Shown in pieces: positions 4,097 through 57,592 of a stretch of 64,000 nt of DNA. Source of the stretch: Escherichia phage vB_Ec-M-J; the sequence record OQ718158.1; one strand, 5' to 3'. The notes beneath the pieces are model-generated. The model was not told the DNA's origin. It did not search any database and worked only from the letters and a program-made list of their open reading frames with translations. Positions within the stretch are counted from its first letter, which is position 1. Each line of letters begins with the position of its first letter. Made by a program: the position numbers and the translations under genes.

Positions 4097-6793
4097 ATGT
4101 CAAAGAAAATATATGGTGGCTTAGACGTCACTCATAATGTGACAGTTAAAGGGAAAAGAACAGTACAGGGCATCAATGAACAAGTATTTGATGCTAATGG
4201 TAATATGGAAATTGATACATATTCCAAAGAAGAATTACTTGATGTAATTAGTTTACTTCCAATCTCGCATTATGGTACACATAACTATCTACCTGCTGGG
4301 GTATCTGGTGATTTTAATGGTGCATCAGAAAACCAATCCCAACGTAGAAACAAAATACTTTTAGAAAACGATGGCACATTAGTACTATTACGTAGTGGTA
4401 CAAACGGTAGTGTTGAAGGTTTATTTTATTCTTACCTAGCGAACGCATTATCCGTTACCGATATGAGCCGTACTGTTAATACAAGCCGTCAGTATAAGCC
4501 TGGCTATTTTGGGGCAAACCGTGTTGCTATTGGTTTATACAATACCGATTCAAAAATACTGTTAGGTCGTTACAATGACACATCTACCAATACTAATGGG
4601 TTGTTTATATCAGTAACGAATGGTACATTGGATGATACTCAACATAGTGGTCTTTTTGTGAACCAAGCTGATATTTCACCTGAAGGTGGGATTGAGTATG
4701 CTATGATGGCAGAAGACGGTTCAGTTTATGTATTCAACGTCCTTAATGAAAATAACAAACTACAGATTGTTGTTGTTCGTGTTGTATTGAATATTGCAAA
4801 CGGTACTTATACTGCTACCCGAATCACGGGGTGGACAACAAAAACTTTTTACAATACTACATATACTGCTCAGAATAATATGATCATTACTGACCATGTT
4901 AACTCAACTAATATTGCTGATAAGCCCTATGTCTATGTACCACAAAATTTGGCTGGTATGGGGATTTATATGACATCTATCGATTTATATGTTGCTCAGG
5001 AGCCAGGAACGCAGAACTTCCGATTCAGAATGAATGGTGACGCATGGTTCACTATGGCAAACTACAATACCCGACCACAGCATAGTTATAGTTTCAATTT
5101 TAACATGAGTACTAAACAATGTAACTTGGATAATGGGAACGATATTGGTACATTTGCTGCACCATTTGTTGTTACAAACACAGGTTCGGCATTGGTTGCT
5201 ACTGGTAATGTTCTCAACAACGATCCGTTATATGACCATAGCGGTGCAAGAAACATTTACAGTTCATATTATTATTTGAATACAGGTGAAGTATTCTGTA
5301 CTGCATGTCCAAACTTAGCAGAACCATTACTTATGCAGAAAGCTAAATTTACTGCACAATCAATATATAGCATGATTAATGTACGTGCGAACATTTCAAC
5401 TGATTTCAGAAATGGCATAGTTCGTCCTTCATTTGGTTCAGCAGTTGGTTCTTTTATTAACGGCGTAGAATTGCTTCCAGGGAACAGTACTAAACAGTAT
5501 TCTCGTTCAACTGGTTCTGGTGCATTCCGTCCATCTTATGCAGTTCATAAAAGTACTCCTAACTTTACGTTTAATTCTTTATCACGTGGAACCATACAAG
5601 GTTATGAGCCAACAACAGAACGTGCTAATGTGACAGATAACACGAACAACAGAGTTTTTATTAGTTCCATTAGTGGTAATAATGTTACTACAAATGGTGG
5701 GATATTCATGGTAGGTCAGAGATATTCCCAATCACTATCATATGATAAAAATATGAACGGAACTGGTATCATTAGTGTTACTCAATCTGTACTTGATAAT
5801 TTCAGAAATGCTGAATACGCCAAAGTACTAAGCGACTGGAACTTATCTTCTGCTGCTTATAAAGATATGACATTGTTTGTTCCACAACAAACTGATATAC
5901 CTGCATTCGTAATGCTAAGTACAGTTACAAATACATATCAGAACTATATTAGAATTGCTGAAGTGAATGTGAATACACGTTCAGGTAATATCACTACAAT
6001 TACCTTCAAGCGTTTAGTACTAGAAAACGTTTACGGAAGTAACTTTACACCAAATGGTAATGGTAGTTTTGCATTGTCTTCTGTTGGTTTAACAATATAT
6101 GATGGTGGTTCTTTCTACTTCATAGGTGGTTCTGACCCATTATCTCACCCAACTATTGGTAATACAAACACACACCAATTCAGAGCATATGTAACAAAAG
6201 CAACTGCACAATTTGATAGTTTTATTATCAGTGGTTCACATGCAAGTTATGAGCAAGGTATTCAACCAGCAGCTTTACCTGGTATTGGTTTTGGTTATTT
6301 CCAAGCAATAGACTATGTAAACAAAATGACTTTCCAAAAATGTGGTACTACAATTGCTGATTATAATAACTGGACTGCTCAAGGTGCACCGATTAACGTA
6401 GTTTCACAAGACGTTGCTCAAGGTTTTATTGTGTACTTCACAGAAGAAACTCCAGTAATTCTTTCTGGTAAAGCATTTACATTACCGATTACTAGTATAA
6501 ACTTAACTACAGTTAAGGCTAATCCAGCAAACACATTATTTCATGTATATGTTAAAATGGAACAAGGTAATGCAAAATATGTAATAACAACTGATGTTAT
6601 TTCAGAGACTGGTACTACAGCATATAATATTTTCTGGATAGGTACTATACAAACAAACTCACTACAAATATCAAATGTTAACATACAAAAACGTTCAAGA
6701 TTGGATATTTTCGGTGCGTCACTTGAAGCTGCTGGTTCTTCATTCCCAGTTAGTTATGGTCTACCGTCACAAACAGGAACAATCAATTGGTAA
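4097..6793 (+). CDS. putative tail fibre / receptor-binding protein, paralog A
   Basis: 898 aa; paralogous to 7410..10139 (shared LLRSGTNGS and FIVYFTEE blocks); C-terminal module SFPVS.G.P.QTGT..W also in 6806..7393. Confidence 0.5.
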   Translation: MSKKIYGGLDVTHNVTVKGKRTVQGINEQVFDANGNMEIDTYSKEELLDVISLLPISHYGTHNYLPAGVSGDFNGASENQSQRRNKILLENDGTLVLLRSGTNGSVEGLFYSYLANALSVTDMSRTVNTSRQYKPGYFGANRVAIGLYNTDSKILLGRYNDTSTNTNGLFISVTNGTLDDTQHSGLFVNQADISPEGGIEYAMMAEDGSVYVFNVLNENNKLQIVVVRVVLNIANGTYTATRITGWTTKTFYNTTYTAQNNMIITDHVNSTNIADKPYVYVPQNLAGMGIYMTSIDLYVAQEPGTQNFRFRMNGDAWFTMANYNTRPQHSYSFNFNMSTKQCNLDNGNDIGTFAAPFVVTNTGSALVATGNVLNNDPLYDHSGARNIYSSYYYLNTGEVFCTACPNLAEPLLMQKAKFTAQSIYSMINVRANISTDFRNGIVRPSFGSAVGSFINGVELLPGNSTKQYSRSTGSGAFRPSYAVHKSTPNFTFNSLSRGTIQGYEPTTERANVTDNTNNRVFISSISGNNVTTNGGIFMVGQRYSQSLSYDKNMNGTGIISVTQSVLDNFRNAEYAKVLSDWNLSSAAYKDMTLFVPQQTDIPAFVMLSTVTNTYQNYIRIAEVNVNTRSGNITTITFKRLVLENVYGSNFTPNGNGSFALSSVGLTIYDGGSFYFIGGSDPLSHPTIGNTNTHQFRAYVTKATAQFDSFIISGSHASYEQGIQPAALPGIGFGYFQAIDYVNKMTFQKCGTTIADYNNWTAQGAPINVVSQDVAQGFIVYFTEETPVILSGKAFTLPITSINLTTVKANPANTLFHVYVKMEQGNAKYVITTDVISETGTTAYNIFWIGTIQTNSLQISNVNIQKRSRLDIFGASLEAAGSSFPVSYGLPSQTGTINW

Positions 6794-16038: not shown

Positions 16039-16058
16039 CGGGACATAATACATCCTAG

Positions 16059-16067
16059 TGATATAAT
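16059..16067 (+). promoter_or_regulatory. extended -10 promoter element (TGaTATAAT)
   Basis: tgatataat at 16059-16067 heading the gene-free locus; no good -35. Confidence 0.4.
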
Positions 16068-16356
16068 GTATATTGTAAAATGACAACGGACATTGAAAAA
16101 TGGATAATGAGAACCTACTTCTCTTGAAAATGTAAAGGATAGATGAGCTTTACCGTTGTAGCGAACAGCAAAAGAAACCTGTTAGAGTACTGGCAATCAA
16201 ACAAACACGAGATAAGACCACGAATCACGGCGACACGGCTGTATAAAGAACTCCAATAAGCACACAGAGAGTTCCTAGATAGATGTATAAGGTTCGCACC
16301 TTACGAATTTGCTAAGGGAGTTCAAGGATTGTGGACGCGATTTTACAAGAAAGTTG

Positions 16357-16373
16357 CGTCCAAAATTTGAGAA
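16357..16373 (+). repeat. direct repeat copy 1 (cgtccaaaatttgagaa)
   Basis: Perfect 17-nt repeat with copy 2 at 16510-16526, within longer imperfect repeat of about 40 nt. Confidence 0.8.
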
Positions 16374-16509
16374 CAGGTACTACTTTGATCGAATAGAGTT
16401 TAGTACTGAGTGCTGTTGATGAAAAGACCAGCGACCGTTGCATATGACTGCGATAGAGAGAAACCGAGCAACCCGCTTTCGCTCTCTAAATTTTGGTACA
16501 GGAAAGATC

Positions 16510-16526
16510 CGTCCAAAATTTGAGAA
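16510..16526 (+). repeat. direct repeat copy 2 (cgtccaaaatttgagaa)
   Basis: Identical to 16357-16373; preceded by inverted repeat aaattttgg/ccaaaattt (9-bp stem). Confidence 0.8.
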
Positions 16527-16565
16527 ATTCGCAATTCGATAATATCCGATGCCATCATCGTCAAG

Positions 16566-16588
16566 AGAGACTTAATTGTCTCTTTTTT
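16566..16588 (+). terminator. intrinsic terminator
   Basis: agagac-ttaatt-gtctct followed by a T-run. Confidence 0.5.
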
Positions 16589-16594
16589 ATTACC

Positions 16595-16618
16595 TTCATT
16601 CCCCTGCGGGGGGATGAA
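16595..16618 (+). other. stable 10-bp hairpin with UGCG (UNCG-type) tetraloop
   Basis: ttcattcccc-tgcg-gggggatgaa; nine Watson-Crick pairs plus one G-U; no U-tract, so not a terminator. Confidence 0.5.
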
Positions 16619-16728
16619 ATAGTCCTCAACAAATCCCGTCAAGCTTTTAAAGTACATTATCATTTTCAGAAGGAACTAGTTTACGAAGTAAACGTAGTGA
16701 CTTCTTGAGTTACGAGAGAACGAAGTGA

Positions 16729-46416: not shown

Positions 46417-47070
46417 ATGGCTATTCGTCACGTTGGTGTAGTACGTAATACGGGTTCACGAGTATTTGTGGTATGGCGTTCACTCCCTGATGATCCAGAA
46501 CATTGTCTCATTGTTTATCGCGACTCACTTCCTGAAGCATATGCTCAATCTGTTGCAGATTTAGTAATGAATCAAGGTCAATCGAATGTGGATTTGTGGG
46601 AAGTTATGCATAAGATTGGTCATCTAGACGGTCGCAAAATGCTAGATGTTCTTCATAATCTACAACATTTGCGTCGTGCACGTACTTGTGATATTGATAT
46701 GCATGTTGGTGGAAACAGTAAGATTTCTCTTGATGTTCTAAACAACGCAATCAATGATAATGATGCTAAAAAACATGAAGATGGTAAAGTTAAAGAATAC
46801 AACCCATTCAAGCCACAAGAAGTTGATACTTCTGTTGAAGAAGCTACCATTGTTGAGCAACTACTTAAAGATGCACAACGTTATGAGCAGTTGGCTAAAG
46901 AGCACTTTGAACGTGCTTACAACTTAGAACCATCTCTACGTCCACAAGTTCAAGCAACACCTGGAGCACCTGATAGCAAAACTTTCTATATTGAAATCCC
47001 AGAAGGAATTTCACAAACCAAAGCAATTGAGAAAGTTAAACAGGCATTTGCAGAACGTAAAGCAAAATAA
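46417..47070 (+). CDS. hypothetical protein
   Basis: 217 aa ORF. Confidence 0.5.
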   Translation: MAIRHVGVVRNTGSRVFVVWRSLPDDPEHCLIVYRDSLPEAYAQSVADLVMNQGQSNVDLWEVMHKIGHLDGRKMLDVLHNLQHLRRARTCDIDMHVGGNSKISLDVLNNAINDNDAKKHEDGKVKEYNPFKPQEVDTSVEEATIVEQLLKDAQRYEQLAKEHFERAYNLEPSLRPQVQATPGAPDSKTFYIEIPEGISQTKAIEKVKQAFAERKAK

Positions 47071-48602: not shown

Positions 48603-48630
48603 AAAGGGAGACTTATGTCTCCCTTTTTTA
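48603..48630. terminator. bidirectional intrinsic terminator between convergent genes
   Basis: gggagac-ttat-gtctccc flanked by A-rich 5' and T-rich 3'. Confidence 0.65.
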
Positions 48631-50639: not shown

Positions 50640-50671
50640 AGATAAAAGAAAAGGCCAACCATAGTTGACCT
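50640..50671 (-). terminator. intrinsic terminator (minus strand)
   Basis: Minus-strand hairpin ggtcaac-tat-ggttggcc with one G-U, then cttttctttt. Confidence 0.5.
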
Positions 50672-50685
50672 TTAAAAAATATAAA

Positions 50686-51465
50686 TTAACGAGTACGCTC
50701 AGGAATATCAATACCTTCATATACCCAAATTGCAGCTTGTTGTGCTTTATAAATTGCATCAGGATCTAAATCATCAACTGCATCAATGTCAGCACATTGC
50801 TTATTACACTCTGCAAATAGAGATTCAACCATAGCAAATGCTTCAGTGTATAGTTGAGTCATTTCAGCAGCAGATAGTTTTACAATTGCGTCATCAAGGA
50901 AAATCGAAACGCTATCAGAACCGGAAGTTACTTGTGTATAATAATTAAGAAGCATTTGACGACCAGCTAGATCAGTACTATAACGATGACCGTTAAACAT
51001 ATAACCAGCATTAATACGATCACTACGAGATGATACTGTGCGTGCTTTCAGATCAGATTTAACTGCTGCAATGTCCATATCAACATAATTATAAGTTTTC
51101 AGTACTGTTAACTCTTTATATTCACCTTCTGCTTCTTCTAAGAATGTGATGACTGGTTGATTACTATCTTGTAGTTTAATATATTCCAAATTCTCATTAA
51201 TTGCGTTCACATTACCAACATTCTTATATTCCAACCACCAGAAACCCTCTTCTTTACGAACAGCGTTATTAGGTTCAATTTCAGAACCATCTTTACTTGA
51301 AATACCATAAAGTGCACGAATATCGCTGTACAAATAACGATATGTTTGTTCATCATCAGGAGTTGCCCCAGGGCGTTCTTTTAAACCCTTAACACCAACT
51401 GGGTTGGAGATGATGTTACCCAATTCATAATTTTCTTTAGAACTACCTTTTACATATGTAAACAT
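50686..51465 (-). CDS. hypothetical structural protein
   Basis: 259 aa; between fibre genes. Confidence 0.5.
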   Translation of the reverse strand: MFTYVKGSSKENYELGNIISNPVGVKGLKERPGATPDDEQTYRYLYSDIRALYGISSKDGSEIEPNNAVRKEEGFWWLEYKNVGNVNAINENLEYIKLQDSNQPVITFLEEAEGEYKELTVLKTYNYVDMDIAAVKSDLKARTVSSRSDRINAGYMFNGHRYSTDLAGRQMLLNYYTQVTSGSDSVSIFLDDAIVKLSAAEMTQLYTEAFAMVESLFAECNKQCADIDAVDDLDPDAIYKAQQAAIWVYEGIDIPERTR

Positions 51466-51487
51466 ATAACTACCTCACTTGTTAAGA

Positions 51488-51520
51488 TGGTGTCACCATA
51501 ATTGATGACACCGTTTTTTT
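51488..51520 (+). other. hairpin with plus-strand T8 tract in a minus-strand gene block
   Basis: ggtgtca...tgacacc followed by gttttttt on plus strand; no U-tract for minus-strand transcripts. Confidence 0.4.
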
Positions 51521-51530
51521 ATTATAATTA

Positions 51531-54500
51531 TTAAGCAGTACGTTGTGCAATGAACAAATCAGTAACTGGACTTACACCATCATAAATTACTTGGTAAATG
51601 GTCACGCTACCAGCAGTTTTGTTTAGTTCACCATCAACAACAGCATAAGTACCATCAGTTGTAAAGTTTCTGTTACCAGTTGCATCTTGTTTAACATAGA
51701 TGTATACTGATGCAGCTTTACCGCCACCAATTAGGCCAGTAATTGGAGCCAACGTGGTATCTTGGTCTAGAGTGATGAAGTATACGTTACTTGTACCATC
51801 TGGAGTCCATGTTCCGGTTGGAGCAATTACTGATGATGTAACTTGAGTTGGGATTACATCATACTTTTTGGTAGTTACTGTTGTAGTAGTTAAGTTAGCA
51901 TTAGTAGTGGTTAGTTCACCAGTCACTGTTACTGCCTTATCAAACACAGCATTTTCTTTAAATGATGAAGTTGCATTAACGGTTAGAACGTCAGCCGCTG
52001 CGTCACCTAATGTTACGTTACCATTCACAGTTAGTGCTCCACCTACTGTTGCGTTACCAGTAATGGATGCACTTGCAAGTGTAGCCAAACCTGATGTTGT
52101 AATTGTAGAAACGGTTGTTGCAGCGAATCCAGCAGTACCAGTTGCAGTGATATTGCCACCCACTGTTATGTTACCCGCAGTGGTCACTGCACCAGTGATA
52201 TTTGCACCACTTGACATAGTTACTAAACCACCAAATGAACCAGTAGTAGTAACTTCTAAAGTATTACCTTTAAGTAATCCAGTTGCAGTGATGGAAGTAC
52301 CAGCAGTAATTGCAGTACCTGCACTTAATGTGGTTCCAGCAGCTACGTTGTTAGCTGCAGTCAAAGACTTAACAGCTACATCGGAATCTGCTTGGTTCAA
52401 TTGTGCATTTAGTACGCCAGTAACAGTGAAGTTACCGTTGTTTACAACGTTACCATTAACGATTAGGTTGTTGTTTTGTGAACCGACTTCACCAATGGTT
52501 GCAGCCTTGGATATAAGTGATGCACCAGATGTAATATCACTTGCTGCCTGTATTGTTTGTTCGGCAACAATTGCATATGGTTCAATTGTTTGACCACTAA
52601 CATCAATATCAGCATTTATACCACCGTCAACACGCAAGGAACCTGCGATGAACGTATTTGGAAAAATCTGTACTGTTTCTGGGTTTTCACCAGTTTGTGT
52701 ACCAATTACAACATTTGCTCCAGTTTTCACTGCACCAGCAGTTGTGATAGAACCGAGTGTAGTAGCACCAGTTACTGATAGTGTTCCACCTATGGTTGCA
52801 TTGTTTGTTACTATTAAGCCAGTACCTGTACCATTAAAGGTAGACGATGGTGCTGAAATTGCACCAGTAACACCAAGAGAACCACCAACAGTTGCATTAC
52901 CATCTGAATGAATGGTTGTTGCGACAGAAATACTATTTGCAACAACATCAGTACTGGAAAGATCCAAACTACCAGGAGTTAATGTACCAGCAACAGTTAC
53001 ATCATCACTGAATGTAGCTGCACCAGTTACACCTAGTGTAGTACTAAAGTTACCGGATGTTGATGTAATACCAGATGTTACAATAGATCCCGCAGTTGCA
53101 GTTCCAGTTACATCAAGTGTTCCACCTATGGTTGCATTATTAGTAACAGATAGAGCAGTTCCTGAACCATTTAGTGTTACAGATGGAGCAGATACTACAC
53201 CAGTTACACCCAAATCGCCACCAACAGTTGTGTTACCGTCGGAATGCATGGTTGTTGCTACAGAAATACTATTTGCAGTAATATCAGATGATGCTAAATT
53301 CAAACCACCAGCAGGTGTAAATGTACCATTTACGGTTACATCCCCAGTAAAGGTTGAATCTCCTGACACATCAACTGTTGTTGTCGAAACACCACCATTT
53401 AAGTTTGTTAAACCAGTGACACTTAGTGTTCCACCAACCGTTGCGTTGTTGTTAACAGTTAAGCCAACACCTGGTCCAGTTAAGGACGCAGAAGGACTTG
53501 TTATTGCCCCACCAAAAGATGCAGTTCCAACAGAACTTATAGTTGTGGAAGATGATAATGATTTAACTTCAACATCAGATGCTGATAAATCAACACCACC
53601 ACTTGCAGTAAGTAATCCATCAACTTGTAAGGTTCCACCAAGTGTTGCTGCACCAGTACTAGATAGTGTATTTGTACTTACTGATGTTGCAGACAAACTA
53701 CCAGTATTAACAGTACCTAGTGTTGTTATGCCAGTTACGTTTAATGTACCATTTAAAACAGACGCCTTTGTAACAGACAAACTATCAATTGTAGCTGGAC
53801 CAGAAACATCGATAGTTTCTGCATCTAAACTACTTAATGTTGATGCACCAATTACATTAAGTGTTGTTGCAGCTTCTACACTGTTTACCACAAGATCAGC
53901 ACCAGCAAGATTCAAACCACCTTCTGGTATAAATTCACCTTTAACAGTTAATTTCTGAACAGTACTGTCACCTGAAATATCCAACGCAGATGCTGCTACG
54001 CCACCATTAAATGTACTTTGACCAGTAACTGCTAAAGTTGTTCCAACTGTTGCACTGTTTAGTGCTGCATTACCACTTATTGATGCGGCAGGTGCGGTTA
54101 TTGTACCTTCATCCAACTGCAACCCACCAGAAACAACTTGAACACCACCAGTTGCTACTGTAACTTTACCAGCGGTATTAACAGTACCAGATGTGGATAC
54201 TGCACCGACAAGAGTTGAAGTACCATTAACTGTCAAATTACCAGAAATTTCAGGACTACCAGTAACAATACCAGTTGTTAGAACCAAATCTCCACCAACA
54301 GTTGTTGAACCAGTACTTGCTAGTGTTGAAGCTGTGATATCAGCGGAACTTAGATCAATAGATCCATCAACACTAATATCCCCACCAACATGCACGTTTC
54401 CTAATGAATCTAACGATTTAACGGTCACATCAGTTGTGCTTAAGTCAATTATACCAGCAGTTAGTGTGCCAGATACAGCCAAATCACCAGTGATTGCAGT

Positions 54501-57497
54501 GCTTTTTGCAATTTCGATAGTATCATCAGCAGTTGTAATACTACCCACAGTTAGTGTACCGTTTATCGTTGCATTATTATCAACAACCAAACCTTCACCA
54601 ATAGCATTTAACGCAATACTAGTAGCAGTTACTTGAGTAGCTGATACACTCTGTAGTGTGCTATTTCCAGTTGCTTCAATGGTTGCTGCTCTAACCGAAC
54701 CAATTGTTGCATCTGTACTAATTAGTTTTGGTAAAGTACTTGAATTTACTGAATCACTTACTGTGATTACACCAGTACTATTAATGGTTTCAGCACTTGT
54801 TAGTGATTTAACAGTTACGTCAGCAGAACTAAGGTCAACTGTTCCTGATACAACTAAATCACCACCAATATTTGCACCTTCAGTTGTGGTAATTGATTTA
54901 GCATTAATATCAGTTGTTGCTAAGTCAATTGAACCAGGAGTTAAAACACCACTAACAGTTAGGTTACCTGTAATTGTTGTATCATTACTAATTTCAACAC
55001 CACCAGCATTAAAAATAACTGGCGTTTCAACAGAAATAGATTTCACATTACCACTTGCGACGACAGATGCTAATGAAGATGCTCCTGTAATATTTAAAGC
55101 AACACTGTTTGTTGTTGTAGCAGTTATAGTTCCAATACTTGCTTCAGTACTTGATAATTTAGGTAGAACACTAGTACCATTTAGATCATTACTAACGACT
55201 GGACCAGTACTTGTTAGTGATTTAACAGTTACATCTGCCGCACTAAGGTCAACTGTTCCTGATACAACTAAATCACCACCAATATTTGCACCCTCGGATG
55301 TGGCAATTGATTTAGCAGAAACGTCAGTTGTGCTTAGGTCAATTGAACCAGGAGTTACCGAACCACTTACTGTCAAGTTTCCATCAATTAAAGTATTATT
55401 TGTAATAGATACACCTGCTGGGTTAGAAATACTATCAGCTTGAACTACAACAGCAGTAACTTTACCAGAAGAATTTAAGTTAACAACACTAGAATTACCA
55501 CTAACTGTCAAATCTGTAATGGTTGCATCACTAACAGTTGCGTTTGTTGCAGTTAAATCAGTACTTGATAATTTAGGTAGAACACTAGTACCAGTTAGAT
55601 CATTACTAACGACTGGACCAGTACTGGTTAATGATTTAACAGTTACGTCTGCTGCACTCAAATCAACCACACCATCAACAGTTAAGTTACCATTAACAGT
55701 TACACCCTCTGTTACAGTTACAGACTTAGCAGCAACGTCAGTTGTGCTTAGGTCAATTGAACTAGGAGTTAGCGTTCCTTGAATAACAACATCATTTTCA
55801 AATGTGGTATTACCGGAAATTGTTGGCGAAGTTAATGTAGTTGTTGAAATTGAATCTGCACTTACGGAATCTGCACTTATTTCACCCGTTGATGTGATTT
55901 TTGGTGAAGTAATTTCAGTTGATGCTGAAATTGTTGGTGCTGAAACTAAAGTTGTTGCAGATACTGAATTTGAGTTAATAGTATTGGTATTTAGTACATT
56001 ACTAAGAACCATCGAACTACCATTAATTTCACCAGTTACACCAAGAGTTCCACCGATTGACGCATTACCAGTGCTTTCTAAGGTCACTGCTTTCACCAAT
56101 GTTGATGCATTAATCGAATTAGGAGTTAGGTCTTGACCACTTACATCAACAGTTAGGCCAGTTACTACACCAGTAAAGTCAACATCGTTTAAAATAGTCT
56201 TACCACCAACTCTTAGTTGTGGTGTGTTTGGGTCTTGTACCGCATTACCAGTAATTGTTAGGTAATCTAGTTTGTTTAGACCATTACCTGTGATACCGTA
56301 AGTAGCCAAAGATGCGTTACCAAAAGTTGCTGTTTTTAGAACATTTAATGTCGCTGGAGAAACAACTTCAGATTGTATTTCGTTTTGTAGTATTACTGTT
56401 GGACGTAAACCAGTACCAGTATATGCAAACGAAATTCTAGCAGCCGGATCTGCTACGTTTTGTCCTAAACTTACTGCTTTAAGTGTCGCAGTACTATTAA
56501 AACCAGTAATGTTACCACCTAAAGATACAGCACCACCTAATGAAGATGTACCAGAAACATTTAATGTTAGTGCGTTCAAATCATCCAATTGGAATGTACC
56601 ACCTAATGTTCCAGCGATATTAATATCATTAAAGTTTGCAGTACCTGAACTTTCGATATTAGGAATGGTTGCAGTTCCAGTTACTTCAAAATCATGAACT
56701 TTAGTTTTTCCAGATTTTACCTCCAACAATGGTGTTGTTGGGTCTTGAACAGCATTACCTGAAACTGTCAAGTAATCTAGTTTGTTTAGACCATTACCAG
56801 TGATACCATATGTTGAAAGTGATGCGTTACCAAATGATGCAGTAGAAAGAACTGTCAATTTTGCTGGTGACATCAACTCTGATTGAATTTCGTTTTGTAA
56901 TAGTACAGTTGGTCTTTGACCAGGAACAGTATAGCCAAAGTTAAGTCTATACGCTTGACCTGCCGCATCCGGTCCAATACGAACATCACGGAAGTTTGCA
57001 GTACTGTTTATACCAGTAATGTTTGCACCCAACGTAACTGCACCTTGTAGACCAGTAGTCCCAGACACATTAAGTGTTGTAGCATTAATATCAGAAAGAT
57101 TAAAAGTACCACCAAGTGTACCAGAAATGTTTACATCTTTAAAAGTTGCTGTGCCAGTTGAAGTAATATCAGTTGATTCAACAGAATCAAATGATCCTGA
57201 ATTAGCTTCTAAGTTATCAAATTTTGCAGTTGTTCCGACAGCAGCAGTAATGTTTCCTGCAAATGTCGCAGCACCTGAAACATCAGCACCAGCGGATAAG
57301 GTTGCCTTACCAGCAACATCCAATGTACCTGTGACATTCACAGTACCAGCGGTAATTGCAGTGAATACTGCGTTAGCAAAAGACACTTCCCCATTAACCG
57401 TTAGGTCATTACTGAATACTGCATTACCTTTGACCAAAAGATCCTTACCTACCGTGGAATTACCAGATACGTCAAGATCCGTTTTAATCGAGTACAT
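51531..57497 (-). CDS. giant repetitive fibre protein (intact paralog)
   Basis: 1988 aa; Thr/Gly/Ser/Val-rich beta-helix-like repeats with internal duplications of about 170 aa. Confidence 0.6.
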   Translation of the reverse strand: MYSIKTDLDVSGNSTVGKDLLVKGNAVFSNDLTVNGEVSFANAVFTAITAGTVNVTGTLDVAGKATLSAGADVSGAATFAGNITAAVGTTAKFDNLEANSGSFDSVESTDITSTGTATFKDVNISGTLGGTFNLSDINATTLNVSGTTGLQGAVTLGANITGINSTANFRDVRIGPDAAGQAYRLNFGYTVPGQRPTVLLQNEIQSELMSPAKLTVLSTASFGNASLSTYGITGNGLNKLDYLTVSGNAVQDPTTPLLEVKSGKTKVHDFEVTGTATIPNIESSGTANFNDINIAGTLGGTFQLDDLNALTLNVSGTSSLGGAVSLGGNITGFNSTATLKAVSLGQNVADPAARISFAYTGTGLRPTVILQNEIQSEVVSPATLNVLKTATFGNASLATYGITGNGLNKLDYLTITGNAVQDPNTPQLRVGGKTILNDVDFTGVVTGLTVDVSGQDLTPNSINASTLVKAVTLESTGNASIGGTLGVTGEINGSSMVLSNVLNTNTINSNSVSATTLVSAPTISASTEITSPKITSTGEISADSVSADSISTTTLTSPTISGNTTFENDVVIQGTLTPSSIDLSTTDVAAKSVTVTEGVTVNGNLTVDGVVDLSAADVTVKSLTSTGPVVSNDLTGTSVLPKLSSTDLTATNATVSDATITDLTVSGNSSVVNLNSSGKVTAVVVQADSISNPAGVSITNNTLIDGNLTVSGSVTPGSIDLSTTDVSAKSIATSEGANIGGDLVVSGTVDLSAADVTVKSLTSTGPVVSNDLNGTSVLPKLSSTEASIGTITATTTNSVALNITGASSLASVVASGNVKSISVETPVIFNAGGVEISNDTTITGNLTVSGVLTPGSIDLATTDINAKSITTTEGANIGGDLVVSGTVDLSSADVTVKSLTSAETINSTGVITVSDSVNSSTLPKLISTDATIGSVRAATIEATGNSTLQSVSATQVTATSIALNAIGEGLVVDNNATINGTLTVGSITTADDTIEIAKSTAITGDLAVSGTLTAGIIDLSTTDVTVKSLDSLGNVHVGGDISVDGSIDLSSADITASTLASTGSTTVGGDLVLTTGIVTGSPEISGNLTVNGTSTLVGAVSTSGTVNTAGKVTVATGGVQVVSGGLQLDEGTITAPAASISGNAALNSATVGTTLAVTGQSTFNGGVAASALDISGDSTVQKLTVKGEFIPEGGLNLAGADLVVNSVEAATTLNVIGASTLSSLDAETIDVSGPATIDSLSVTKASVLNGTLNVTGITTLGTVNTGSLSATSVSTNTLSSTGAATLGGTLQVDGLLTASGGVDLSASDVEVKSLSSSTTISSVGTASFGGAITSPSASLTGPGVGLTVNNNATVGGTLSVTGLTNLNGGVSTTTVDVSGDSTFTGDVTVNGTFTPAGGLNLASSDITANSISVATTMHSDGNTTVGGDLGVTGVVSAPSVTLNGSGTALSVTNNATIGGTLDVTGTATAGSIVTSGITSTSGNFSTTLGVTGAATFSDDVTVAGTLTPGSLDLSSTDVVANSISVATTIHSDGNATVGGSLGVTGAISAPSSTFNGTGTGLIVTNNATIGGTLSVTGATTLGSITTAGAVKTGANVVIGTQTGENPETVQIFPNTFIAGSLRVDGGINADIDVSGQTIEPYAIVAEQTIQAASDITSGASLISKAATIGEVGSQNNNLIVNGNVVNNGNFTVTGVLNAQLNQADSDVAVKSLTAANNVAAGTTLSAGTAITAGTSITATGLLKGNTLEVTTTGSFGGLVTMSSGANITGAVTTAGNITVGGNITATGTAGFAATTVSTITTSGLATLASASITGNATVGGALTVNGNVTLGDAAADVLTVNATSSFKENAVFDKAVTVTGELTTTNANLTTTTVTTKKYDVIPTQVTSSVIAPTGTWTPDGTSNVYFITLDQDTTLAPITGLIGGGKAASVYIYVKQDATGNRNFTTDGTYAVVDGELNKTAGSVTIYQVIYDGVSPVTDLFIAQRTA
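56117..57137 (-). repeat. intragenic tandem repeat (two units of about 510 bp) in the 1988-aa fibre gene
   Basis: Conserved core ggtaatctagtttgtttagaccattacc at 56262-56287 and 56772-56797; similar units in the 1049-aa gene. Confidence 0.7.
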
Positions 57498-57592
57498 AGA
57501 GTCCCCTCCTATAACGATGAACTATATATTCATAACCCATCTTTTGTTAATATACTTATATTTAGTTTAATTCACAAAAACACTATTATCTA

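Follow-up and report, generated by a model that had tools for sequence, protein, structure and literature searches.

A conserved intercistronic hairpin downstream of a tail fiber gene in Escherichia phage vB_Ec-M-J: a candidate non-terminating descendant of an intrinsic terminator

The window analyzed here, a 64,000-nt stretch of the Escherichia phage vB_Ec-M-J record OQ718158.1, contains a long plus-strand gene block (168-48598) that ends in genes encoding an ATPase, an HNH endonuclease, a DprA-like protein and thymidylate synthase and is of early/middle type. This block converges at 48.6 kb on a minus-strand late block, which extends from 48631 to beyond 64000 and encodes three tail fiber paralogs (phrog_4549) and virion structural proteins. 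Within the late block, 2.9 kb from the convergence, a 65-nt gap separates the stop codon of a tail fiber gene from the ATG of a gene for a 259-aa virion structural protein, both on the minus strand (hereafter the sense strand), and this gap is the site of the hairpin described below (Table 1). The 2-kb stretch around the hairpin matches 35 phage records, all of them jumbo coliphages and Salmonella phages of the Asteriusvirus type. The nearest records are Ecwhy_1 (97.6%), EC.P1, WPEC5, fEgEco12, CMSTMSU and TH47; the 121Q/PBECO4/G17 group matches at about 79%. The searchable literature yielded no study of promoters, terminators or transcriptomes in an Asteriusvirus.

Table 1. Features at and around the hairpin (positions in the 64,000-nt window).
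Feature	Position	Strand	Evidence or remark
Upstream gene, 1988-aa tail fiber protein	51531..57497	-	PHROGs; labeled 'long tail fiber proximal subunit' in relatives
Fiber-gene stop (51533-51531), second in-frame TAA and A/T-rich spacer TAATAATTATAAT	51521..51533	-	Sequence
-10-like TATAAT inside the A/T-rich spacer	51526-51521	-	Sequence, promoter scan
T7 run (sense strand: A7), immediately following the hairpin in the plus-strand direction	51514..51520	+	Canonical terminator feature for plus-strand RNA only
Core stem-loop	51489..51512	-	Sequence, folding; outer 7-8 bp invariant in all relatives having this hairpin
23-nt sense 3' flank AUCUUAACAAGUGAGGUAGUUAU, without U-tract	51466..51488	-	Shine-Dalgarno GAGG of the 259-aa gene at 51476-51473
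Downstream gene, 259-aa virion structural protein	50686..51465	-	PHROGs; no ATAAATA late-promoter motif precedes it
Canonical sense terminator after the 259-aa gene (GGTCAACTATGGTTGGCC + TTTTCTTTT)	50653..50670	-	Followed by ATAAATA at 50636-50630
Strong bidirectional terminator at the convergence of the plus-strand block and the minus-strand late block	48606..48623	both	d = +40 (+), +26 (-)
ATAAATA with downstream start codon	4057, 31739, 34805, 38515, 39037 (+); 50636, 4021 (-)		Putative late-promoter motif

On the plus strand, the core stem-loop reads GGTGTCAcCAtaatTGaTGACACC and is followed by a G and a run of seven T residues as counted by regular expression, one fewer than the T8 tract given in the preliminary description of the locus. 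The hairpin starts 18 nt past the fiber-gene stop codon and has a G+C-rich stem and a 4-nt loop. In minus-strand RNA, the stem-loop GGUGUCAUCA-AUUA-UGGUGACACC comprises an uninterrupted 10 bp including one U·G pair, whereas the same bases on the plus strand give 7 bp, a C·A mismatch and 2 bp. The predicted free energy of the core is -14.0 kcal/mol on the minus strand versus -10.8 kcal/mol on the plus strand, the latter reaching -13.1 kcal/mol with a U·G/A-U extension. A 37-nt segment folds with -16.0 (plus) and -15.5 (minus) kcal/mol (z = -5.3 and -6.1, respectively), and none of 200 shuffled sequences folded as well. Moreover, the hairpin is retained in longer folds of both strands, including a 221-nt sense fold, and its inverted repeat GGTGTCA-N-TGACACC is present as a single copy in the window and in none of 100 shuffles. 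The hairpin is not a chance structure. The fold statistics and the PHROGs assignments of the neighbors to tail fiber and virion structural proteins bear out the earlier statement that a strong hairpin lies between two minus-strand structural genes, and the claim that its U-tract exists solely in plus-strand RNA also held, the minus-strand RNA continuing 3' of the hairpin with AUCUUAACAA. Two candidate identities were discarded: a repeated element or operator, the motif being unique in the window, and an RNase III site, for which a 10-bp stem is too short.

In order to describe the variation of the element, the intergenic region was aligned from 15 relatives. The outer stem GGTGTCA(C)/(G)TGACACC is invariant, and the loop and the inner stem differ between variants, of which only four or five are distinct and between which the inner-stem pairs shift register. 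Besides the window variant, which has the loop AUAA in Turkey3, these are the 121Q type (GGUGUCACUCA-UUU-UGGGUGACACC), the UE-S1 variant (GGUGUCACCU-UACUU-GGGUGACACC) and the ph0011 variant (GGUGUCACC-UAUACUU-GGUGACACC); scans of IMG/VR and of metagenomes returned copies of the 121Q type only. The sense 3' flank AUC[U/A/G]UAACAA[G/A]UGAGGUAGUUAUAUG is almost invariant, with two variable positions across the four variants. The least conserved part is the T-run, i.e., the A-run of the sense strand, which ranges from T3 to T9 overall. On the sense strand, it reads A6-A9 in the clade of the window, A4 in UE-S1 and ph0011, and AUAAA in the 121Q type. Within the core stem, none of 16 positions varies among six genomes versus 63% of the four-fold degenerate sites in the adjacent 259-aa gene (P ~1e-7), a degree of conservation that is compatible with a role on either strand and indicates that the stem is under purifying selection.

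Near the hairpin, the start codon of the 259-aa gene lies within an A/U-rich palindrome, UAUAUGUUUACAUAUGUA (51451-51468, minus strand), which is predicted to pair in the 221-nt sense fold and may influence translation initiation or merely reflect the codons for MFTYV. A second sense helix predicted in the folds, AUCUUA/UGAGGU, would sequester the Shine-Dalgarno sequence; this candidate was rejected because its base pairs are disrupted in 121Q, UE-S1 and ph0011.

The composition of the inner stem bears on the strand that is selected. A U·G pair is found in the minus-strand inner stem of three of the four variants, each time at a different stem position, and it becomes a C·A mismatch on the plus strand. 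These mismatches give the minus-strand stem an advantage of 2-4 kcal/mol in three of the four variants, with core energies (sense/antisense, kcal/mol) of -14.0/-10.8 for the window, -16.3/-12.4 for the 121Q type and -17.1/-14.8 for UE-S1; ph0011 shows almost no asymmetry (-15.9/-15.3). As a calibration set, 17 same-direction terminators were used for which the functional strand is fixed by the U-tract and the gene direction. Their functional strand is more stable by at least 2 kcal/mol in 9 cases, about equal in 8 and less stable by at least 2 kcal/mol in none. If the plus strand were the functional one, the hairpin would represent the sole opposite asymmetry, and this in three variants. Comparison of the four or five variants available thus strongly favors the view that folding of the minus-strand RNA is what selection maintains. 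G·U asymmetry can be used in this way to assign the functional strand of a hairpin; the criterion is not absolute, as the distant relative Turkey5 has an unrelated terminator hairpin whose orientation is the less stable of the two.

Both strands of the window were scanned for hairpins with a T-tail by means of a d'Aubenton-Carafa-type score (d) and ViennaRNA energies. The window has 13 sense-strand terminators in gaps flanked by genes of the same direction, and three convergent junctions carry terminators on one or both strands; the terminator following the 259-aa gene exemplifies a real minus-strand terminator of the same late block. On the plus strand, the hairpin site (51487-51514) obtained d = +18.9 with nT 4.99, inside the range of the genome's real terminators, and its hairpin energy of -10.8 to -13.1 kcal/mol compares with -7.4 to -16.9 kcal/mol for the real terminators of the window. 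It is the sole same-direction intergenic site of the window that scores on the antisense strand alone. A consensus terminator scan of the window did not list the site because the plus-strand stem has the C·A mismatch, which the rules of that scan disallow. In a further 50 kb of fEgEco12, four sense sites, three bidirectional convergent sites and no antisense-only site were recorded. Hence, among 18 same-direction terminator-like hairpins in the 64-kb window and the 50 kb of fEgEco12, this is the one with an antisense-facing T-run.

On the plus strand, a single G separates the stem from the U-tract, within the 0-2 nt expected of an intrinsic terminator; in the 121Q type, the tract is weaker and has an interruption (TTTATTATT, d = -1.8). 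The plus-strand tail is T-rich in all four variants (nT 3.2-5.0), and d is positive in the other three; selection on plus-strand termination is therefore conceivable. On the sense strand, a U-tract after the stem is absent: the window has the tail AUCUUAAC and 121Q the tail AUCAUAAC. All four variants score there with nT 0.7-1.1 and d about -40, values that fit read-through. Of the two tracts of a bidirectional terminator, the 5' A-tract is present and the 3' U-tract is missing; true bidirectional sites for comparison are located at 2791 and 48606 in the window and at 5633, 11376 and 36103 in fEgEco12. Furthermore, the plus-strand hairpin is not placed at the 3' end of a plus-strand transcription unit, and neither a credible plus-strand ORF nor a conserved plus-strand promoter was found between 48.6 and 51.5 kb. 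The only plus-strand transcription able to reach it is read-through from the block ending at 48.6 kb, to which the bidirectional terminator at the convergence, the strongest of the window on the plus strand, is the first barrier 2.9 kb before the hairpin.

A-rich 5' flanks also accompany bona fide sense terminators of this genome (A8 at 62680-62687, A6 at 48.6 kb and TATAATAAA at 24356). The T8 at 62680-62687, the only other plus-strand run of at least seven T residues in the minus-strand block, is the A-rich 5' flank of a sense terminator at 62650-62676 (minus strand). Long A-runs ahead of hairpins are therefore a habit of this genome.

Distant homologs of the locus were identified by protein search with the 259-aa product, and the regions between the fiber gene and the 259-aa gene were compared. 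Phages JNE01 and Turkey5 carry CCAGTACTGG...CCAGTACTGG followed by TTTTTC, phage A4 carries GGTACAGGA-TTTT-TCCTGTACC followed by TCTTTGT, and in Erwinia phage Kaldavass, GCCAGG...CCTGGC precedes TTTTTTATTTG and a subsequent ATAAATA. All of these hairpins are sense-strand terminators of unrelated sequence (d = +16, +10, -8 and +36 for JNE01, Turkey5, A4 and Kaldavass, respectively); the antisense score is -34 to -66 in JNE01, Turkey5 and A4 and weakly positive (+5.6) in Kaldavass. Moreover, hairpin and ATG are 37-54 nt apart in these four phages versus 23 nt in the window. Since sense terminators occupy the same position in these relatives, the comparison indicates that a hairpin following the fiber gene is a conserved feature of the sense transcript. 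The weak UCUUUGU tail of A4 looks intermediate to the AUCUUAAC of the window.

As a separate observation, the 29-nt terminator hairpin of Turkey5 (~1128-1156, CCAGTACTGATCATTGTGACCAGTACTGG) is the exact reverse complement of the JNE01 copy (~1127-1155, CCAGTACTGGTCACAATGATCAGTACTGG), with identical flanks and the same T5 tail, i.e., an in-place hairpin inversion. Terminator hairpins in these jumbo phages thus turn over by replacement, inversion and loss of the U-tract.

Regarding initiation of transcription, the motif ATAAATA is located upstream of structural genes in phages CBB and GAP32, resembles the T4 late promoter TATAAATA and is accompanied by a gp55-like sigma factor (PMC5259590). In the window, seven of its nine copies lie 13-51 nt upstream of a start codon on the same strand, and the motif scan of the window returned none upstream of the 259-aa gene. 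The 259-aa gene, with its 65-nt gap, a hairpin-to-ATG distance of 23 nt and no ATAAATA, should therefore depend on transcription through the hairpin, which fits the missing sense U-tract; co-transcription of this virion gene with the fiber gene is probable from the layout.

On the opposite strand, the only promoter-like site nearby is located at 51157-51185 (9/12), and its -10 hexamer is not conserved. Promoter-like sites are fewer in the region than in shuffled sequences (32 versus 57.7), and synonymous variation in the 5' part of the 259-aa gene is not reduced. A conserved cis-antisense RNA of the oop type starting at 51157-51185 was rejected on account of the unconserved -10 and the lack of constraint at synonymous sites. 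In the Rfam search, no family reached the gathering threshold anywhere in the window, and the local matches were at chance level only (e.g., MicF, 18 bits versus a gathering score of 79).

Upstream of two of the tail fiber paralogs, a 22-nt motif, CTAAATATA[A/T]GTATATTAACAA, was noticed at 57544-57565 and 62612-62633 (both minus strand), matching twice in the window and in none of 100 shuffles. The copies lie ~45-50 nt upstream of genes that both begin ATGTACTCGA, and could represent a promoter or regulatory motif or a plain duplicated 5' region. A diverged copy, CTAAATAATGTATATAAACA, at 29868-29887 (plus strand) is situated in the loop of a terminator-like hairpin (29862-29899).

Based on these results, the element is interpreted, with moderate confidence, as a terminator-derived, non-terminating intercistronic hairpin of the sense late mRNA, for which a stabilizing role is suggested by analogy with T4 hairpins, REP elements and the puf hairpins. 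An ordinary intrinsic terminator, as in the sister lineages, would have stood at this position originally; in the outgroup Kaldavass, ATAAATA also follows the terminator. The lineage comprising the window, 121Q, UE-S1 and ph0011 variants would then have lost the sense U-tract together with the downstream spacer, so that 23 nt are left between hairpin and ATG versus 37-54 nt in the relatives. As a consequence, RNA polymerase would read through, and the 259-aa virion gene would be expressed from the fiber-gene transcript. The hairpin itself appears to have been retained under strong purifying selection: a stable sense stem-loop of 10 bp (-14.0 kcal/mol, z = -6.1) with an invariant outer stem is present. 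Mechanistically, it would most likely block 3'-to-5' exonucleases and in this way set the stability of the fiber segment relative to that of the downstream cistron. The A-run on its 5' side would be an instance of the A-rich flank that terminator-type hairpins of this genome usually have, and may have grown to A6-A9 in the window's clade via one substitution and slippage. Since the T-run is the A-run read on the other strand, the predicted ability to stop plus-strand transcription is probably incidental. Of the two roles offered in the preliminary description, a non-terminating stability or processing element of the minus-strand message is thus favored, in view of the minus-strand-only G·U pairs, the sense-terminator homologs, the lineage-specific variable T-run and the downstream gene without a promoter motif; termination of antisense transcription is retained as a plausible side property, given the plus-strand score and the converging block, but neither a conserved plus-strand promoter nor an antisense RNA was found in support of it.

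Intercistronic stem-loops that stabilize mRNA are known as the C(UUCG)G hairpins of T4, the E. coli REP element in malE-malF and the Rhodobacter puf hairpins. In common with these, the element is a stable hairpin directly after an upstream cistron, without a U-tract and with a conserved stem and a free loop, from which the mechanism proposed above is inferred. It differs from REP in that its sequence is unique and not part of a repeated family. In contrast to the T4 hairpins, its loop is not UUCG, although the relative fEgEco12 uses UUCG loops in real terminators. Rho-independent terminators, including the bidirectional type, share with the element the G+C-rich stem of 7-10 bp, the 4-nt loop and the position 18 nt past the stop codon. 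Further likenesses to intrinsic terminators are the A-run on one side, as at 48.6 kb and 62.6 kb, and the plus strand, which has all the sequence features of such a terminator; however, the hairpin has no U-tract on the gene strand, and there is no plus-strand gene or conserved promoter to serve. The element therefore falls outside both the normal sense terminators and the true bidirectional ones.

Alternatively, the hairpin could be a functional intrinsic terminator for plus-strand, i.e., antisense or 'anti-late', transcription, which might coexist with the sense role and would stop RNA polymerase leaking past 48.6 kb, or starting from cryptic plus-strand promoters in the 654-aa and 259-aa genes, before it enters the fiber genes. 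This explanation is possible but doubtful. It draws on an architecture that is canonical on the plus strand only (-10.8 to -13.1 kcal/mol, T7, d = +18.9), on scores above 0 in three variants, the 121Q type being the exception with -1.8, on the lengthening of the T-run to T6-T9 in the window's clade and on the UE-S1 GenBank record, which annotates a plus-strand terminator at the homologous site. Moreover, the block with the thymidylate synthase, DprA-like, HNH and ATPase genes converges on the late fiber block and is of early/middle type; read-through past 48.6 kb would therefore make RNA antisense to late genes. Anti-late RNA is known in T4, and cis-antisense units of the oop type in lambda; the likeness of the locus to both lies in a terminator facing a late block that converges with early/middle-type genes. 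The difference is that neither an antisense promoter nor a conserved antisense RNA was found here and that the case is isolated, with no pattern. Against an antisense terminator, the stem has C·A mismatches on the plus strand, and none of the 17 real terminators is weaker by 2 kcal/mol or more on its functional strand. The length of the T-run is not conserved (T3 in the largest clade), and the ARNold-based annotation of G17 did not call the site. The plus-strand promoter-like site at 51157-51185 is unconserved and overlaps a coding region without suppressed synonymous variation, promoter-like sites are depleted relative to shuffles, a strong plus-strand terminator (d = +40) is already present at 48.6 kb, and JNE01, Turkey5 and A4 lack an antisense terminator at this position. 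Finally, no second antisense-only case occurs among the 18 co-directional sites in 114 kb, which gives no hint of a general system of barriers. In a combined scenario, which is considered unlikely, the polarity of the terminator was switched: loss of the U-tract would have fused two late cistrons while the A-tract lengthened, and the conserved hairpin would serve both as a stabilizer of the late message and as a dedicated stop for anti-late transcription from the converging block, guarding the fiber mRNAs from duplex formation.

A further, improbable explanation is that the minus-strand sequence TGCACA-17-TATAAT(A), ending at 51521, is a promoter with a transcription start at ~51514-51512, so that the hairpin would be the first structure of the 259-aa mRNA and protect it from 5'-end-dependent decay. 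The promoter scan scored this sequence 10/12, the hairpin begins within a few nucleotides of the predicted start, and TATAATA, present in all variants except BF17 and Turkey3, matches the -10 motif that the distant relative PA5oct has near its mapped transcription starts (PMC7318152). However, the -35-like hexamer falls within conserved codons of the C-terminus and the -10 coincides in part with the tandem stops and the A/T-rich spacer, so the conservation of the hexamers has other explanations, and BF17 and Turkey3 have TAAAAT instead of TATAAT (51526-51521). The same TATAATAAA plus hairpin occurs at 24356-24386 followed by a sense U-tract, where a promoter would be pointless; in addition, structural genes of this phage group are preceded by ATAAATA and not by sigma-70-type sites, and promoter-like matches are not enriched in the region. 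Very improbable is an RNA operator at which a translational repressor or some other protein with RNA-binding activity, comparable to T4 gp43 or RegA, would bind 12 nt ahead of the Shine-Dalgarno sequence of the 259-aa gene; the same holds for a palindromic DNA operator. The invariant stem does adjoin an invariant ribosome-binding region, and T4 gp43, which binds a hairpin upstream of its own ribosome-binding site, provides a precedent (PMC3014915). On the other hand, loop sequence and length vary freely (AUUA, AUAA, UUU, UACUU, UAUACUU), as is uncommon among sequence-specific RNA operators, the motif is single-copy in the window, and no candidate binding protein was identified; the inner stem keeps its pairing through G·U, pointing to RNA instead of a DNA operator. 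It is equally hard to credit that the hairpin is a palindrome arisen by chance or the relic of a terminator left without function. A relic would be compatible with the turnover of terminator hairpins at this position, which are unrelated in sequence from lineage to lineage and in one case inverted in place, but the 16 stem positions are invariant next to four-fold sites of which 63% vary, the fold has z-scores of -5 to -6, and the inner-stem pairing is kept despite indels.

With respect to annotation, pipelines label the site as a plus-strand terminator, as in the UE-S1 record, whereas the comparative evidence argues for a hairpin maintained for the sense message. The locus represents an ordinary regulatory hairpin with a mildly instructive evolutionary history. 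The dual-strand reading, if true, would provide a compact case of one hairpin serving opposite transcripts and a modest extension of terminator biology.

Two further observations concern terminator-like hairpins elsewhere. The hairpin AGAGACTTAATTGTCTCT followed by T5 occurs in the window at 16566-16583 and in fEgEco12 at 37160-37177 (both plus strand), ~100 kb apart, each time inside a small minus-strand ORF that is putative in the window and annotated in fEgEco12; no convincing ORF was recognized in the window at 16039-16728. C(UUCG)G tetraloops are known from T4, and the late-block sense terminators of fEgEco12 at 21426-21443, 24991-25006 and 46962-46979 bear such tetraloops.
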